From: an uncultured Candidatus Saccharibacteria bacterium
GTDB lineage: Bacteria; Patescibacteriota; Minisyncoccia; Minisyncoccales; Staskawiczbacteraceae
Length of the DNA stretch: 64,000 bases
Direction of reading: 5' to 3'
Assembly (NCBI GenBank): GCA_964424305.1
Contig: CAYRHW010000003.1
Span: 4,895-68,894 of the forward strand
Shown: one piece after another, positions 7,846-25,950 of the stretch
Numbering within the stretch: position 1 is the stretch's first letter
How the letters are laid out: each line of letters begins with the position of its first letter
Position numbers and translations under genes: made by a program
The notes under the pieces: model-generated
Told to the model about the DNA's origin: nothing
Databases searched by the model: none
Seen by the model: only the letters and a program-made list of their open reading frames with translations

Positions 7846-8625
7846 TCAGCTGTTAATGGTGTTGATGGTTGCATCAATTTCATAGCCAAGTTTTACTTTC
7901 CTGGCGATGATGCTAATGCGGAACCTACCAACATTTTTAATGCCGATTTCTATAACCCCTGCGGCCGGGGCATATTCGTAATTAAGGGCAATTCCTGCCA
8001 TAACGAATAATTCGTTGATCACTTTGGCAGAAATATTTGCCGGAATGCGTAAATCCCGCGACTCTTTACAATCAATGGTGAAAATATGCCCCTGATCATC
8101 CGGGCGGATCTTGAATCCCTTTGCGTCAAGGTTGAAGACCATAGCGATGGCATCGTTAAGCCACGCGGTCGATTGATCTCTTTCGGAATCTGGTCTCCCG
8201 ATAGGAAGTCCCGTGGCCCAAACACCAACATCCCCACGCTTCTTCTTTTTCCAAAGCCACACTTCCCCATCACCCAATCGCATTACCACTGCCTTTACCC
8301 TGTTGTTATACACAAAACGAATCAAGGCTGCCTCAATCTCTGCGGTGCTATCGCTTGGTTGCAGTACCTCTGCCACTTTGAACTGAGGCGGAATTTCTAT
8401 CGCCGTTACTTCGCCTTGCTGGATGTATGCAACGAATACTTCGGTGCCCCACCAGAGGACAACATCACCGAAAGAAATCTCAGTATGAAAAGGTACACCT
8501 TTATCGGATGCCAGTTTATGGTCGTTAGCCCAAATAGCTCTTAAAAAGCTGACAATCTCCATTCTCCAGCGAAATGTTGCCCATTTGCCTGGAGAAATTC
8601 CCTGCAGAAAGAAAGCTTCAATCAT
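7846..8625 (-). CDS. Hypothetical protein, 259 aa (start re-called; the track ORF used TTG at 8667)
   Basis: The ATG at 8625 is preceded by GGAAGGAG. It has its own promoter and terminator. GC is elevated (31/60 in line 8101-8160). No motif recognised. Confidence 0.6.
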   Translation of the reverse strand: MIEAFFLQGISPGKWATFRWRMEIVSFLRAIWANDHKLASDKGVPFHTEISFGDVVLWWGTEVFVAYIQQGEVTAIEIPPQFKVAEVLQPSDSTAEIEAALIRFVYNNRVKAVVMRLGDGEVWLWKKKKRGDVGVWATGLPIGRPDSERDQSTAWLNDAIAMVFNLDAKGFKIRPDDQGHIFTIDCKESRDLRIPANISAKVINELFVMAGIALNYEYAPAAGVIEIGIKNVGRFRISIIARKVKLGYEIDATINTINS

Positions 8626-8694
8626 ATCTCTTCTCCTTCCTTGGTAGATATTTCTGTCATTTCGCAATTATTTTTATTTAAAACGGCTGATACC

Positions 8695-9204: not shown

Positions 9205-9690
9205 TTACCACGACCCATTTGTGAACGACATGCCCCCATTTTCAAAATTCATTACTATTAATTGAAAAGTTTTTGCCGCTTTATCAACTGTAAACCAATA
9301 ACAATAATTGCTGTTTAGATTATTTATCGGATCGACTGGAACCGAGGACATATATACGTAATTATTTGAATTAATAGTTGGATACCCAGGCGGAGTCCCC
9401 TTTAGGAAAACCATAAACCCTCCCGTGCAGCTGAGATCAACGGTCCCGCCAACGCCGTAATCCCCACCCCCGTAATCTATCGGGGCAGGGAGAGAACCAT
9501 AATCTGCGATATACATTTGCAGTGCCTTATTTATACTATTCGCATCCATCTTCCTCACTGAATCTCTAGCACTCGCCCTAGCCTTCGAAACAGAAACCGC
9601 AATGATAGAAGATAAAATTCCGATAATAGCTATTACAACTAATAGTTCTATCAGAGTAAAACCTCTTTGTTCCCGGGTATTTTTAATCAT
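9205..9690 (-). CDS. Type IV pilin / pseudopilin (prepilin-type N-terminal cleavage/methylation domain)
   Basis: RGFTLIELLVVIAIIGILSSI is the class III signal peptide with the G|F cleavage site and Glu+5. Confidence 0.9.
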   Translation of the reverse strand: MIKNTREQRGFTLIELLVVIAIIGILSSIIAVSVSKARASARDSVRKMDANSINKALQMYIADYGSLPAPIDYGGGDYGVGGTVDLSCTGGFMVFLKGTPPGYPTINSNNYVYMSSVPVDPINNLNSNYCYWFTVDKAAKTFQLIVMNFENGGMSFTNGSW

Positions 9691-9796: not shown

Positions 9797-10207
9797 CTAT
9801 TGTGTAACTGTTATTTTCCCCAACATTGATGGGTGTATGGCACACGAATAGTTGTATTCACCCACGGTAGAAAAATCAAATTGAAAACTTTCGCCAGTGC
9901 TTAAAACCGCAGAGTTGAAAACGGCGGATTTAATTTGGTGAGGTACAGAATCTTTATTCGTCCACGACACAGTATCTCCCTTTTTTATAGTTAAAGCCGA
10001 TGGAGAAAAAGCAAAATTCTTTATTTCTATTTTATAAAACTTTCCGCCTGTCTCCGGGTTAATGGGCGGATTATCATTTGGGTTAGTAACTGAGTTTTCC
10101 CCGGCCGGAGCTTTTGTGTTGTACGTTGACCCATTGTATATATAGTACCCTCCAACCAAAATGATTAATATGATAACGATGATTGAAATTAAAATTGTTT
10201 TATTCAT
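9797..10207 (-). CDS. Membrane-anchored cupredoxin (type 1 blue-copper, plastocyanin/amicyanin-like)
   Basis: N-terminal TM segment. Candidate Cu ligands are His in SVPHQIKS and C-x2-H-x2-M in YSCAIHPSMLGKI. Confidence 0.75.
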   Translation of the reverse strand: MNKTILISIIVIILIILVGGYYIYNGSTYNTKAPAGENSVTNPNDNPPINPETGGKFYKIEIKNFAFSPSALTIKKGDTVSWTNKDSVPHQIKSAVFNSAVLSTGESFQFDFSTVGEYNYSCAIHPSMLGKITVTQ

Positions 10208-10223
10208 ATAATTTTTTTAATTA

Positions 10224-10424
10224 TTAAAAATATAATAGAAAACCCAAAACTAAATGTACGCCGACGATACTACAAAGGACGATCGCGTTGCGCCTATGGT
10301 ATTTGAAATATTCTGGATGGCCCCTCGTTATCTTTATGCCTAAATAGATTTGAATACAAAAGCTTATTAAAGCAACGAGCCCCACCCAGAAAACCAAAGG
10401 CTTATTAAATAAGATAATTATCAT
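10224..10424 (-). CDS. Small membrane protein (2 TM)
   Basis: 66 aa and hydrophobic. Only a 3-nt gap separates it from the upstream gene. Confidence 0.45.
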   Translation of the reverse strand: MIIILFNKPLVFWVGLVALISFCIQIYLGIKITRGHPEYFKYHRRNAIVLCSIVGVHLVLGFLLYF

Positions 10425-10427
10425 ATT

Positions 10428-10751
10428 TTATTCTAACTCAAATGGTGCCCCTGGCAAGCGCACATTAAGAATCATATTCCTATTTGCCTCTTTAGCAGGA
10501 TAAATACAATATGTAATCTCTACCCCATATTTTTTATTCATACCCTCAAGAAAAAGACTAATAGCTTTGACGTCCATCTCCGTGAAATGTATTACTCCCA
10601 AATTCAAATCAAACTCAAACTCGTCTACTTGTCCCCTATAAAAGTTCAACCCCCTTTTTCCAAAAAGCTTAAACTCAAAATTTTTGAAAAACGCCAGGAC
10701 TTCGTTCTGCAATTCCTTATTATTTAAAAAACTAATTTTAGATTTTCCCAT
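10428..10751 (-). CDS. Hypothetical protein (107 aa)
   Basis: ORF with host-like AT-rich composition. No motif recognised. Confidence 0.45.
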   Translation of the reverse strand: MGKSKISFLNNKELQNEVLAFFKNFEFKLFGKRGLNFYRGQVDEFEFDLNLGVIHFTEMDVKAISLFLEGMNKKYGVEITYCIYPAKEANRNMILNVRLPGAPFELE

Positions 10752-10920
10752 ATTTCTTACTTTAATTATATTAATCCATTATACAACCAAAGGGCCGTTG
10801 TTGAAACGGCTTCCGGATAAAACGTGGGTGGCTAGACGATTTCCGAACCTATGAGTGAGAACGATGATTCCCCGACCCTGAGTCAACGGTTGAAAAGATT
10901 AAACAATTATTGGTTTTGGT

Positions 10921-10961
10921 TTAAAATAAAAGCCCCGTTCGCTTGTGAGCTACTAGGGGCT
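10921..10961 (-). terminator. Rho-independent terminator of the rSAM-peptide operon
   Basis: The minus strand reads AGCCCC-loop-GGGGCT followed by TTTTATTTT, starting 12 nt after the peptide stop codon. Confidence 0.7.
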
Positions 10962-10973
10962 ACGATGGAACGG

Positions 10974-11138
10974 CTAATCGCCGTCGCCGCCGCACGACCC
11001 ATCGCCATGGCAACCGTCGCCGCTGGAAGAACTGCAACCTTCGCAGTCACTGACGCCGCTATTGCGTCTCAACGGCCTGTTCCAGTGGGCATAACGCGCC
11101 TTGATGAGGGCCAGCTTGATTCTGAGGGTCTTTTTCAT
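10974..11138 (-). CDS. Candidate RiPP precursor peptide, 54 aa: basic leader plus acidic 4-Cys Gly/Ser/Asp-rich core
   Basis: My codon-by-codon translation gives MKKTLRIKLALIKARYAHWNRPLRRNSGVSDCEGCSSSSGDGCHGDGSCGGDGD*. The SD AGGAGGTG lies 6 nt upstream, the gene starts 31 nt after the rSAM stop on the same strand, and a terminator follows. Confidence 0.7.
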   Translation of the reverse strand: MKKTLRIKLALIKARYAHWNRPLRRNSGVSDCEGCSSSSGDGCHGDGSCGGDGD

Positions 11139-11144
11139 GGTAAT

Positions 11145-11152
11145 CACCTCCT
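11145..11152 (-). promoter_or_regulatory. Shine-Dalgarno site of the peptide gene
   Basis: AGGAGGTG on the minus strand, with a 6-nt spacer to the ATG at 11138. Confidence 0.7.
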
Positions 11153-11169
11153 TTCACCCTATCGAGAGG

Positions 11170-12255
11170 TTAATGTGCCGACAATACTCGCCAACACTGA
11201 GGATCAGGCGCAAAGAAATTGCCACCCGAAGCTCCGAATGACACGGCTGGACAACCACGACAATAGCACAGAAGCGGGCACTTAGAGCATGCCTCAAACT
11301 TGGCGATGTCGCGGTACTGGTCCATTCTTTCGGATGTAAAGATTTCCAAGATACTTTGATCGGGCACCTTGCCGATTGGACTATTAAATCGTCTACAGGC
11401 AAATACTGTGCCGTCGGCCAGGATGGCTACATCCCTTGCGCCGATATGGCATCCTGAGACTACCTGGCCGTCGGGATTGACCGACGGATGGAATTTCCCC
11501 TGCTCGTACATGAGAAGCGTCCACAAATGATCCTTGAGAGTAAAGGTGGTTTTCGAACCCTTTGCTTTGAGCTCGGCAACCAAGTCCTGGACTCGCAACA
11601 AAAGATCTCTATACCCCAGAGGGGTTAACATCGCTTCTGCTGGTGAAATCTTAGCAGCGATTCCTGGGCTACTAGACAGCCGTGCGAAAGCAAAGGCGCC
11701 CACGCCCAATTTGTCTACCAACCTCATCGCGTCGAGGAGATCCCCACTGTTTTTCTTGCTAAGGGTGTACATCACCACCGCTCTCATCTTACATTCGACG
11801 AGGAGCTTGATGGCGGCAACTGTCGCAGAAAAACTTCCGGATTTCCTCAGGGAATTGTGCATCTCCTCCATTCCGTCGAGACTCACCTGGTAGCTGACAA
11901 CCCCGAGACTCTTCATCTTGGCGATGTTATCGGCGGTAAGGTGGAATGGATTTCCCATGACACACAGCTTAATGCCTCGACTCGATGCGTACTCCAGAAT
12001 CTCGAAAAAATCGGAACGCAAGAGGGGGTCTCCGCCGGTGAAATTGATCTTGGGATTCGCCCCTGCTGTTTCACAAAAATCAACGAAGGAATCGATCACT
12101 GCCTTGCAGCTGTCTAGAGAAAGCTCTTCTGCAAGCTCACGTCTATATGAAACCGGGTCGTTAACCATGTAACAGTGCAGACACGACTGATCGCAGTGAG
12201 CAGTAATGTGCCATTGGATCACGAAAAGTGGCAATTTATCCTTATCGCGTGTCAT
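11170..12255 (-). CDS. Radical SAM enzyme with C-terminal SPASM (twitch/auxiliary Fe-S) domain; putative peptide-modifying maturase
   Basis: CX3CX2C at residues 21/25/28 (CDQSCLHC) and the GGDPLL SAM motif. SPASM-like elements are CHIGARDVAILADGTVFAC (CX12GX4C), CSKCPLLCYCRGC and DPQCW. There is no N-terminal RRE-sized extension. Confidence 0.85.
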   Translation of the reverse strand: MTRDKDKLPLFVIQWHITAHCDQSCLHCYMVNDPVSYRRELAEELSLDSCKAVIDSFVDFCETAGANPKINFTGGDPLLRSDFFEILEYASSRGIKLCVMGNPFHLTADNIAKMKSLGVVSYQVSLDGMEEMHNSLRKSGSFSATVAAIKLLVECKMRAVVMYTLSKKNSGDLLDAMRLVDKLGVGAFAFARLSSSPGIAAKISPAEAMLTPLGYRDLLLRVQDLVAELKAKGSKTTFTLKDHLWTLLMYEQGKFHPSVNPDGQVVSGCHIGARDVAILADGTVFACRRFNSPIGKVPDQSILEIFTSERMDQYRDIAKFEACSKCPLLCYCRGCPAVSFGASGGNFFAPDPQCWRVLSAH

Positions 12256-12456
12256 TTTGGGTCCTTTCTTCGTGTTAAAGAACTGTTCATCTGTTCTAAA
12301 CTGGGACTCTCTGGCTTCCGCTTAAGGTTAACCTTTTGCCGGGGCTTGTCAACGAAAGGGCTGTTTTTTATCGATTTAGACGTGAATGTATTGAATTTGA
12401 CTCTATTTACGGCTATGATATAGTATAAATAATCCGCCATTTTTGGCGACAAAATT

Positions 12457-13200
12457 ATGATTTACGATAAATTACAAAAAATTGGTCTTTCGGAAAGAGA
12501 GGCGAAAATCTACGCTGCCCTTCTAGAATTAGGGGAAACTAGCATCCAAAGAGTTTCCAAAAAGTCTAAAATTAAGAGGACAACCATTTATAATATAATC
12601 GATACCCTAAAAGAAAAGGGGTTAGTCTCCGTTATCTTTAAGAAAAAAAGGAAGTATTATGTTGCCTCTGATCCCAGAGATTTAGAGCTAAAGCTAGATC
12701 AGCAAAGGAGTATTTTAAAAAATATTCTGCCAGAACTTTTATCAATTTCTAACCTCATTGATAAAAAACCTAAGATAAGGTTTTTTGATGGCATTGAAGG
12801 CATTAAAGAAATATATCTAGACACTCTCAAATATGTAGGGCAACCGCTTTGGGCTTGGGTGACAGACGAAGTGTTCGATGACCTTGATAAAGAATTTGCT
12901 GAATATTACGTTTCTAAACGAGCAGAAAATAAAATTATGGCTTATGTTATAGCTCCGGATACACAAAAAATTAAAAACTATAAAGCCGGAGACATGAAAT
13001 CTCTAAGACAGACAAGAATTGACCCAGAAAGCTCTAACATCGAAGTTGAAATGGATATATATGGAAATAATAAAGTGGCCATAATGTCCTTTGGAGAAGG
13101 CTTTGGCCTTATTGTCGAAAGCAAAAAAATTTACAATACCTTAAAGAGTATCTTTGATATTTCGTGGAAAAATTTGGGACACGGTTATCAACAATTATAG
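12457..13200 (+). CDS. TrmB-family transcriptional regulator (winged HTH plus C-terminal effector-like domain)
   Basis: The N-terminal LQKIGLSEREAKIYAALLELGETSIQRVSKKSKIKRTTIYNIIDTLKEKGLV is the TrmB HTH signature. It is the only plus-strand protein gene and is divergent from the rSAM gene. Confidence 0.8.
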   Translation: MIYDKLQKIGLSEREAKIYAALLELGETSIQRVSKKSKIKRTTIYNIIDTLKEKGLVSVIFKKKRKYYVASDPRDLELKLDQQRSILKNILPELLSISNLIDKKPKIRFFDGIEGIKEIYLDTLKYVGQPLWAWVTDEVFDDLDKEFAEYYVSKRAENKIMAYVIAPDTQKIKNYKAGDMKSLRQTRIDPESSNIEVEMDIYGNNKVAIMSFGEGFGLIVESKKIYNTLKSIFDISWKNLGHGYQQL

Positions 13201-18919: not shown

Positions 18920-18997
18920 TGGCGCGGGTGACGGGATTTGAACCCGTGATCTGATCCGTGACAGGGATCCGAGGACTCCAGACTCCTCCACACCCGC
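18920..18997 (-). tRNA. tRNA-Asp (anticodon GTC), CCA encoded
   Basis: Hand-folded cloverleaf: acceptor GCGGGTG/CACCCGC, D stem GAGG/CCTC, anticodon arm GATCC-CTGTCAC-GGATC, T arm ACGGG-TTCAAAT-CCCGT, then GCCA. Confidence 0.9.
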
Positions 18998-19680: not shown

Positions 19681-19682
19681 AG

Positions 19683-19755
19683 TGCCGGCGACAGGGATCG
19701 GACCTGTGACCTTGCGCTTATGAAACGCATGCTACTACCACTGAGCTACGCCGGC
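19683..19755 (-). tRNA. tRNA with CAT anticodon (elongator Met or Ile2 type), no encoded CCA
   Basis: Acceptor GCCGGCG/CGCCGGC, anticodon arm TGCGT-TTCATAA-GCGCA, T arm ACAGG-TCCGATC-CCTGT. Position 55 is C, which is unusual. Confidence 0.75.
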
Positions 19756-19762
19756 TTACTTG

Positions 19763-19833
19763 TTGCGCCGCCCCGAATTGCACGGGGGCCCACAGCTTAT
19801 GAGACTGTTGAGGTACTACTCCTCCACGGCGCT
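19763..19833 (-). tRNA. Atypical tRNA-like gene with CAT anticodon (possible initiator-like or degenerate tRNA)
   Basis: Acceptor AGCGCCG/CGGCGCA (A1 opposite A72), D stem GAGG/CCTC, anticodon arm ACAGT-CTCATAA-GCTGT, T arm CCCCG-TGCAATT-CGGGG with a non-canonical loop. Confidence 0.5.
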
Positions 19834-25600: not shown

Positions 25601-25950
25601 TCCTAGTAAGCTAGACGATCGCTCTTTTTTAAAGAGAGGAAAGTCCGAACACCATCTCCGCTTTCCGCGGGATAAAATTGTAGCGGCTAACGGCCGTCCA
25701 CAGCAATGTGCGAGGTGCGAACAGAAACGGCTATGATCGAAAGATCTGGCATTCCAGCAATGGAATACTTCTACAGTAATGTAGGAATGAAACGGCTAAA
25801 TCCTTACAGGGCGCAAGAGCAAAGCAGAAATTCAGGTTAAATACATCTTGAATATCTGTTAAAAGTAGTTCGCCAGAGCCAGCAAGTAATTGCTAGCCCA
25901 GACAGATGATCGTCCCAGACAGAATTCGGCTTATCGGCTTGCTAGGACAT
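25601..25950 (+). ncRNA. rnpB: RNase P RNA, bacterial type A
   Basis: Conserved GAGGAAAGTCCG (P4 5' strand) and ACAGAATTCGGCTTATCGG (P4 3' strand). P1 pairs TCCTAGTAAGC with GCTTGCTAGGA. Confidence 0.95.

Follow-up and report, generated by a model that had tools for sequence, protein, structure and literature searches.

We describe a candidate two-gene peptide maturation cassette in a stretch of 64,000 nt, hereafter the window, taken from contig CAYRHW010000003.1 (positions 4,895 to 68,894, GenBank assembly GCA_964424305.1) of an uncultured Candidatus Saccharibacteria bacterium. An open reading frame (ORF) at 10974-11138 probably encodes the precursor peptide of this minimal cassette, and the radical S-adenosylmethionine (SAM)/SPASM enzyme encoded just upstream would be its maturase; reading from the sequence, we put the probability of this at roughly three in four. 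The peptide gene is real and under purifying selection. The peptide stays beside the enzyme in unrelated genomic contexts, and the type of peptide co-varies with the clade of the enzyme. Judged by its sequences, the cassette forms a sister clade that brings a new precursor family, among radical-SAM/SPASM enzymes with predicted Cys-rich peptide substrates.

The peptide gene and its family

The ORF runs from an ATG at 11138-11136 to a TAG at 10976-10974. A Shine-Dalgarno sequence, AGGAGG, lies at 11152-11147, 8 nt 5′ of this ATG, which is the likely start because the longer GTG-initiated form reported by the ORF finder begins inside the ribosome-binding site. The product is laid out as a leader of about residues 1-30, containing K-L-x-x-I-K-x-x-Y-A-H-W-N, and a core of residues 31-54 whose terminal stretch, CHGDGSCGGDGD, is invariant in the family. 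Recounting from the sequence gave the composition that the first-pass annotation had noted, with 9 Lys/Arg and no Asp/Glu in residues 1-25 and 6 Asp/Glu, 4 Cys, 1 His, 8 Gly and no hydrophobic residue in residues 31-54; its Cys contexts (D-C32-E, C35, C43-H-G-D46 and C49-G-G-D52) were also all right. The six frames of the window contain 554 stop-to-stop segments of 40 aa or more, and the peptide ORF is the only one with a C-terminus of this kind. At least 4 Cys and at least 5 Asp/Glu with no hydrophobic residue are found together in 2 of 38,196 24-residue windows, both inside the same ORF.

Two further properties had been ascribed to the peptide. Amphipathic-helix periodicity of the leader did not survive a shuffle test, the hydrophobic moment being 0.239 against a shuffle mean of 0.276, with 57% of shuffles equalling or exceeding it. 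The bipartite charge architecture held for one half of the molecule: the acidic core is kept in the family (median -6), but a strongly basic leader is not a family trait, since leader net charge across 38 homologues has a median of +3 and ranges from -4 to +12, strong basicity being limited to the window peptide and its closest relatives.

Homologues were gathered by a single-sequence search, which gave 3, then from the DNA beside related enzymes, which gave more, and finally by a profile search, which brought the total to about 40 peptides, none of them named. An exhaustive hidden Markov model search of 1.84 billion representative proteins returned only 24 clusters at E <= 0.001, so the family is probably rare, though small ORFs are under-called. 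The homologues share the leader motif Y-x-[HY]-W-N, and nearly all end in a near-invariant C-H-G-D-G-[S/E/Q]-C-G-G-D-G-[D/E]-stop. In an alignment of 38 sequences (A3), W19 and D52 are invariant and Y16, C35, G40, G45, D46, G47, G50 and G51 are conserved in at least 90%. The Cys/Asp pattern first remarked in the single sequence is thus kept among homologues, C43, D46, C49 and D52 being either invariant or found in at least 90% of the 38, and it is kept through synonymous codon changes: over the last 13 codons of 10 genes there are 262 synonymous and 102 non-synonymous pairwise codon differences, the latter confined to three variable positions. This synonymous excess directly shows purifying selection in the peptide frame. 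In 10 of 11 related loci a ribosome-binding site of the GAAAGGAGG type lies 5-9 nt 5′ of the peptide start.

A conserved sub-group (P0136, P0137, P0142 and P0159) lacks the final two Cys (..GCS[AS]SSGDGDGDGNGGDD) and retains C35 together with the tail rich in GDG. For P0136 (locus L163, 3583-3783) the partner enzyme is intact, at about 72% identity. C35 may be a key site, or the Cys-poor peptides may be decoys. For the L163 peptide the likely true start is a GTG that follows a GAAAGGAGG site, and not the annotated ATG. At another locus (L166, 3619-3756; P0148) the leader is kept (KLTRIKSGFVHWE) and the core is wholly different (CSGCMCGCSTCGSCN), beside an enzyme 67% identical to that of the window; core swapping therefore occurs within the enzyme clade. 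A third locus (L173) carries two tandem precursor-like ORFs (1895-2116 and 2332-2523) 5′ of one enzyme gene, one of the CHGDG type and the other with the same leader motif (RYAYWS) and a shorter, different core (..GGSCSFCEGEDINDLHYQA).

The enzyme and its pairing with the peptide

The predicted maturase has its SAM-cluster motif CxxxCxxC at C21/C25/C28 and seven C-terminal Cys (C269, C287, C323, C326, C332, C335 and C354) that are predicted to hold two auxiliary clusters; the SAM motif and all seven SPASM Cys are invariant across 37 sequences (alignment A1). Its best NCBIfam family is TIGR04340, the radical SAM/SPASM protein of the ACGX system, matched over the full length at 330.5 bits (cutoff 400), followed by TIGR04082, the thio(seleno)oxazole maturase SbtM, at 215.6 bits (cutoff 350, E = 1e-63, residues 9-354). 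The next families reach at most about 127 bits, among them TIGR04545 (AhbD, heme b synthase) at 127.2 bits (cutoff 500) and NF047865 (PapB) at 60.6 bits (cutoff 340), and QhpD is not among the best 25 of the 77 NCBIfam family matches. An AlphaFold2 model (predicted local distance difference test score 93.2) matches PDB folds that include the peptide-modifying SPASM/twitch enzymes SkfB, SuiB, anSME, PqqE, CteB and TigE, the best with template modelling (TM) scores of 0.65-0.73 at no more than 24% identity. The best PDB match by sequence is SkfB (E = 2.5e-14), and sequence and fold searches of the PDB found no solved structure close enough for transfer of the reaction.

Many radical-SAM/SPASM enzymes for peptides that are made ribosomally and modified after translation (RiPPs) carry a RiPP recognition element (RRE), which is common in the class and not obligatory. 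Pfam finds Radical_SAM and SPASM only, and no RRE or PqqD-like domain in the enzyme, nor is there a conserved partner gene nearby; with CxxxCxxC already at residues 21-28 there is no room for an N-terminal RRE. As to the earlier idea of the leader as a recognition helix, the enzyme offers no RRE domain for it to dock to, and the helix periodicity failed as described above.

We compared 160 loci with relatives 38-51% identical to the enzyme and 12 loci with closer relatives, reading the small ORFs beside the enzyme gene. Wherever the enzyme of a related locus reaches 50% identity, a leader-homologous peptide adjoins it, whatever the surrounding genes; in one tally of these loci all but three peptides are of the CHGDG type, two of the three loci (one protein) having the variant without its final two Cys and one a different Cys-rich core. 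Where enzyme identity is at least 57%, the peptide lies downstream and is of the CHGDG type in 7 of 11 loci; the other 4 loci (two proteins) have a Cys-poor variant or a different Cys-rich core, likewise downstream. At 50-53% the peptide is again of the CHGDG type and lies upstream. Below 48% it also lies upstream, and most of the peptides are canonical ACGX repeats such as ...SACGSACGAGDK, the others, of the CNCGGGC and CSCNC classes, having the forms NFW...SAQSVLG...CGAGSCNCGGGCNGEC and ...CSCNCSSGCSAC....

Controls show how the family models divide these pairs. The canonical peptide matches TIGR04341 and the three other peptide types do not, and TIGR04340 members also pair with peptides outside TIGR04341. 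Enzymes beside ACGX-type and CNCGGGC-type peptides exceed the TIGR04340 cutoff (L036, 531.7 bits; L003, 468.4 bits), and those beside CHGDG peptides miss it (the window enzyme, and L002 at 349.8 bits). In the leaders, W19 is invariant in the window family, within YAHWN, and W13 is invariant in the sister peptides of the candidate phyla radiation (CPR) type, within N[FY]W; hhalign aligns the two motifs at E = 5.5e-4 with a probability of 30%.

Since the peptide type co-varies with the enzyme clade, these comparisons support a maturase-substrate pair. The proposal in the first-pass annotation that the ORF is a leader-plus-core precursor for the adjacent enzyme is supported by adjacency in unrelated contexts, by this co-variation and by the layout of the peptide.

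The cassette might work as follows. The enzyme and peptide genes would be co-transcribed, and the peptide would be translated from its own strong ribosome-binding site. The enzyme would hold the peptide through the leader motif L-x-x-I-x-x-x-Y-x-H-W-N with its invariant Trp, and this binding would have to be direct, because there is no RRE domain. With a 5′-deoxyadenosyl radical and its two auxiliary Fe-S clusters, the enzyme would then modify the Cys of C-H-G-D-G-x-C-G-G-D-G-[D/E]. We infer that the enzyme acts on the window peptide with Cys as its target; the Cys of the C-terminal motif are the presumed reactive sites because a Cys-rich core is the single feature common to all the sister families. 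With a thioether or a thiooxazole the product would be a short, very acidic peptide with many carboxylate, His and thiol or thioether groups, and could bind metal. Its action may be intracellular, or it may rely on generic factors, since no conserved protease or exporter accompanies the genes. The cassette itself would move horizontally among small-genome bacteria (Patescibacteria, or CPR) and DPANN archaea.

Several points weigh against a precursor and its maturase. That the peptide is modified is predicted only from co-variation and adjacency. The enzyme reaches the curated cutoff of no named family, which leaves no rule by which to transfer a function. The homology of the leader to those of the sister peptide families appears weak. 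The C-terminal Cys pair is not indispensable, given the Cys-poor sub-group and the intact enzyme that accompanies P0136. Finally, no protease, exporter, metal gene or other neighbour recurs across the related loci whose neighbours were listed, and the lack of a conserved leader peptidase or exporter nearby is unusual for a secreted RiPP.

Pairs of a radical-SAM/SPASM enzyme and a Cys-rich peptide have been a productive source of peptide chemistry, including sactionine, ranthionine and thiooxazole links, and a literature search found no experimentally studied member of the branch to which the window cassette belongs. It is conceivable, and we suggest it only tentatively, that CHGDGxCGGDG[D/E] peptides are a new class of radical-SAM-matured small molecule common to Patescibacteria and DPANN archaea. 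The Cys modification would then be either new or so far known from SbtM only, giving for example a metal-binding peptide with a thiooxazole or thioether made anaerobically, or a product resembling a cofactor, and a self-sufficient two-gene unit would be spreading across the bacterial-archaeal divide among ultra-small episymbionts. Current precursor models do not detect the peptide, and the gene calling of its own contig overlooked it; the 12-residue C-terminus of the peptide is almost unchanged from tiny-genome bacteria to DPANN archaea. Because these hosts can make so little by biosynthesis, the product is probably important to them. At about 1.3 kb the two-gene system is small enough for direct co-expression, and resolving its chemistry would provide the first function for the ACGX family, which is much larger and widespread among Firmicutes and Actinobacteria of gut and rumen.

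Candidate chemistry and related systems

The ACGX system (TIGR04340 with TIGR04341) was defined in silico, and a search of the accessible literature for the system, for the two models and for the CHGDG/CGGDG motif found nothing relevant. Apart from the full-length match to TIGR04340, the likeness to the window cassette extends to enzyme size (about 340-370 aa), to the RRE-less architecture, to a short peptide with a Cys/Gly/Asp-rich C-terminal part that adjoins the enzyme (here across a 31-nt spacer), and to a Cys-to-Asp spacing that is fixed in both families; JGI labels relatives 70-75% identical to the window enzyme 'radical SAM/SPASM domain protein of ACGX system'. There are also differences. 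Canonical enzymes score 468-532 bits on TIGR04340 and the window enzyme stays under 400. A canonical peptide reaches 41.8 bits on TIGR04341 (cutoff 28), whereas the window peptide has no match to it, nor a significant match to any named precursor family in NCBIfam (E <= 1) or Pfam; with the canonical peptide correctly recovered as positive control, the first-pass annotation was right that the peptide fits no described precursor model. The window peptide has no A-C-G and one C-G-G only, and in place of A-C-G-x repeats it carries a single, non-repetitive, His-containing and strictly C-terminal motif, CHGDGxCGGDG[DE]; its YAHWN leader is unlike ACGX leaders. The ACGX peptide gene lies upstream of the enzyme gene and that of the window's closest relatives downstream, and the named hosts are mainly gut Firmicutes and Actinobacteria there, mainly Patescibacteria and DPANN archaea here. 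Because the curated criteria are missed and the precursor family is its own, we place the window cassette as a sister branch of the ACGX system and not as a member.

What the enzyme might do to Cys can be framed in two ways, a thioether and an SbtM-like heterocycle, which fit the data about equally well; neither is more likely than not, and the rest of the probability goes to other chemistry. A Cys-to-Asp/Glu thioether, as the first-pass annotation suggested, is possible; the analysis neither refuted it nor favoured it over heterocyclisation of Cys. The metallophore that the same annotation named as an alternative is possible too. Tentatively, then, chemistry of the ranthipeptide kind may abstract H from the beta-carbon of Asp46 and Asp52 (perhaps of Asp41 or Glu33) and join to them the sulfur of Cys43 and Cys49 (and perhaps of Cys35 or Cys32), closing small 13-membered thioether rings across C-x2-D. 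C-H-G-D and C-G-G-D are near-invariant in the family, and Asp or Glu stands at +3 from 50% of Cys in the window family versus 19% in shuffles. Tight turns would be easier with Gly within the putative rings. In the 83 canonical ACGX-repeat peptides (L003-L161), Asp or Glu stands at +4 from 62% of Cys (A-C-G-x-x-D) versus 11% in shuffles, which equals the C-x3-D spacing of PapA. PapB, which makes Cys-Asp/Glu thioethers, works on C-Xn-D with n = 0-6 (PMC9413430) and can use the C-terminal residue too (PMC12373016); the motif of the window family is always at the extreme C-terminus. The freyrasin pair PapB/PapA and the pair QhpD/QhpC resemble the cassette in joining a SPASM radical-SAM enzyme to a core in which Asp follows Cys at a fixed short distance. 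PapA differs in its spacing (C-x3-D against C-x2-D here) and in having six motifs against two or three. Against thioethers, the score on the PapB model is far below its cutoff, so that the window enzyme is not placed in a known ranthipeptide maturase family. Within the motif Gly varies no more than Asp does, and conservation therefore does not single out Asp as the acceptor; the CSCNC and CNCGGGC cores, whose enzymes are sisters at similar distance, have no acidic residue near Cys; and the sub-group that lacks C43 and C49 still retains its Asp residues.

With the same reserve one may suppose an SbtM-like reaction, in which one or more core Cys would lose H from the beta-carbon and be converted by a four-electron oxidation to 5-thiooxazole. 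The product would be a small acidic peptide in which thiooxazole, His and Asp chelate metal, as in the metallophores of multinuclear non-haem iron-dependent oxidative enzymes (MNIOs). SbtM is the closest experimentally characterised family, for the window enzyme and for other members of the clade, and the alignment spans the whole radical-SAM and SPASM body. It turns Cys or selenocysteine of a short peptide into a thio(seleno)oxazole with the loss of 4 H (PMC11002830). Cys is followed by Gly in 97% of the ACGX-repeat Cys, and C49-Gly is conserved in the window family. The window enzyme also resembles anSME in having no RRE; anSME lacks this domain and attacks the beta-carbon of Cys. Thiooxazole peptides are reported to be copper-binding or metallophore products, and one reported MNIO-type modification site is K-C-G (PMC12538549, bioRxiv 10.1101/2025.11.18.689057). 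The MNIO systems (bufferins, fontiphorin) provide a possible functional analogy only, through Cys-derived heterocycles in small copper-binding peptides; their enzyme is oxygen-dependent, the radical-SAM enzyme anaerobic, and there is no sequence relationship. The objections to SbtM-like chemistry begin with the score, 216 bits against a cutoff of 350, and with the N-terminal ~195 residues of SbtM, which the window enzyme lacks (the match covers model positions 197-515). No selenocysteine or selenocysteine insertion sequence (SECIS) context was seen: the peptide ORF has Cys and no in-frame TGA, and Rfam finds no element in 10300-12700. The window peptide has several Cys in an acidic, Gly-rich core. 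SPASM enzymes at such a distance often differ in chemistry, and the reaction gives no role to the near-invariant Asp spacing.

CteB of the SCIFF system and the sactipeptide maturases SkfB and AlbA likewise go with a Cys-rich C-terminal core, and by sequence and fold SkfB (6efn) and CteB (5wgg/5why) rank with the best PDB matches of the window enzyme. The identity is only 15-24%, however, with TM scores of 0.65-0.7, and the window peptide does not match the SCIFF model. CteB carries an N-terminal RRE-type domain, which the window enzyme lacks.

It is improbable that the peptide stays unmodified, as a metal- or Fe-S-binding molecule of metallothionein or chaperone type or as a partner or regulator of the enzyme, which would act elsewhere. 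Its Cys/His/Asp/Gly composition suits metal binding, a match to the Cys-rich Pfam family FeoB_associated is weak and non-significant (E = 0.073), no protease or exporter is conserved, and a cupredoxin gene lies two genes away in the window. The cupredoxin neighbour, however, is not conserved in the related loci with listed neighbours. A leader-plus-core arrangement with an invariant Trp motif recurs over very different cores alongside this enzyme family, the peptide type follows the enzyme clade, and the best structural matches of the enzyme include peptide-modifying SPASM enzymes, all of which speak for a matured precursor.

That the ORF is a chance product of GC-rich DNA, and that the 144-aa ORF overlapping it on the plus strand (10851-11285) or nothing at all is the real gene, is effectively refuted, even though the source annotation of the contig omits the peptide gene (L162, between 2586 and 3005), by the near-invariant C-terminus of about 40 homologues, the conservation within A3, the conserved Shine-Dalgarno site, the constant position beside the enzyme and the synonymous excess in the peptide frame, the last of which disposes of the plus-strand ORF.

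Genomic setting

Table 1. Features of the cassette and its surroundings, in window coordinates
Feature	Position	Strand	Description
GC-rich island (two-gene cassette)	10850..12260		50-54% GC vs 33-38% in the flanks
Radical-SAM/SPASM maturase (predicted)	11170..12255	minus	361 aa; Pfam Radical_SAM (PF04055) and SPASM (PF13186)
Spacer, enzyme stop to peptide start	11139..11169	minus	31 nt; contains the Shine-Dalgarno sequence
Precursor peptide gene (predicted)	10974..11138	minus	54 aa plus stop; translation MKKTLRIKLALIKARYAHWNRPLRRNSGVSDCEGCSSSSGDGCHGDGSCGGDGD
Terminator-like hairpin	10922..10961	minus	GCCCCU...CGGGGC then UUUUAUUUU; RNA fold; starts 12 nt past the peptide stop
Promoter-like site	12422..12449	minus	TCGCCA-16-TATACT; consensus scan only, 9/12 matches; ~165 nt 5′ of the enzyme start
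TrmB-family helix-turn-helix regulator	12457-13200	plus	TrmB domain match; divergent from the cassette, sharing a 200-nt intergenic region that holds the promoter-like sites

The features are collected in Table 1. The cassette has 51.8% GC against 37.7% in the rest of the window and is the only 1-kb bin above 45% GC within the 64 kb. GC at third codon positions is 0.57 in the enzyme gene and 0.73 in the peptide gene, and 0.32-0.38 in most of the genes around them; the cassette also exceeds its flanks in GC at 8 of 11 related loci. Such an island suggests that the cassette was probably acquired horizontally, and recently. No convincing direct or inverted repeats flank its edges, viral contigs have no copy of the back-translated core motif and thus give no sign of phage carriage, and Rfam has no match in or around the cassette (10300-12700).

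By source name, the family is hosted by Candidatus Staskawiczbacteria, the Patescibacteria group, Nanoarchaeota and Woesearchaeota, with a weak match in Scalindua, and one related locus is binned as Gammaproteobacteria. The simplest reading would be a two-gene unit exchanged between small-genome bacteria and DPANN archaea.

We assign the 3′ hairpin a terminator role with reserve: its stability is not significantly above that of shuffles (z = -0.93), and its loop is too long for a consensus terminator scan. The link between the TrmB regulator and the cassette appears weak as well, the regulator gene lying in low-GC host DNA and not being seen by the cassette in the related loci with listed neighbours. 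Two genes downstream of the cassette is a protein with a cupredoxin/copper-binding domain (9797-10207, minus), and beyond it a type IV pilin-like (N_methyl) protein (9205-9690, minus). The cupredoxin does not recur in the related loci with listed neighbours, and we therefore treat its presence as coincidence. At 10780-10900, about 200 nt of non-coding DNA separate the peptide hairpin from the next gene; they include a GC-rich stretch with a GCCGTTTCAACAACGGC hairpin at 10794-10810, have no Rfam match and may be the trailing end of the acquired island. The contig annotation calls a 62-aa ORF that overlaps the enzyme start (within window ORF 12252-12452, minus); it lies in low-GC DNA and looks spurious.

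Elsewhere in the window, a 273-aa ORF (7846-8667, minus) with a local GC of 46-51% may be another acquired gene; its exact sequence is absent from the protein collection, and the called start may differ. Three tRNA genes lie on the minus strand (18920-18997, 19682-19755 and 19762-19833), an Asp-GTC and two Met-CAT in tandem. A class A bacterial RNase P RNA at 25603-25949 on the plus strand (121 bits) marks the window as bacterial.

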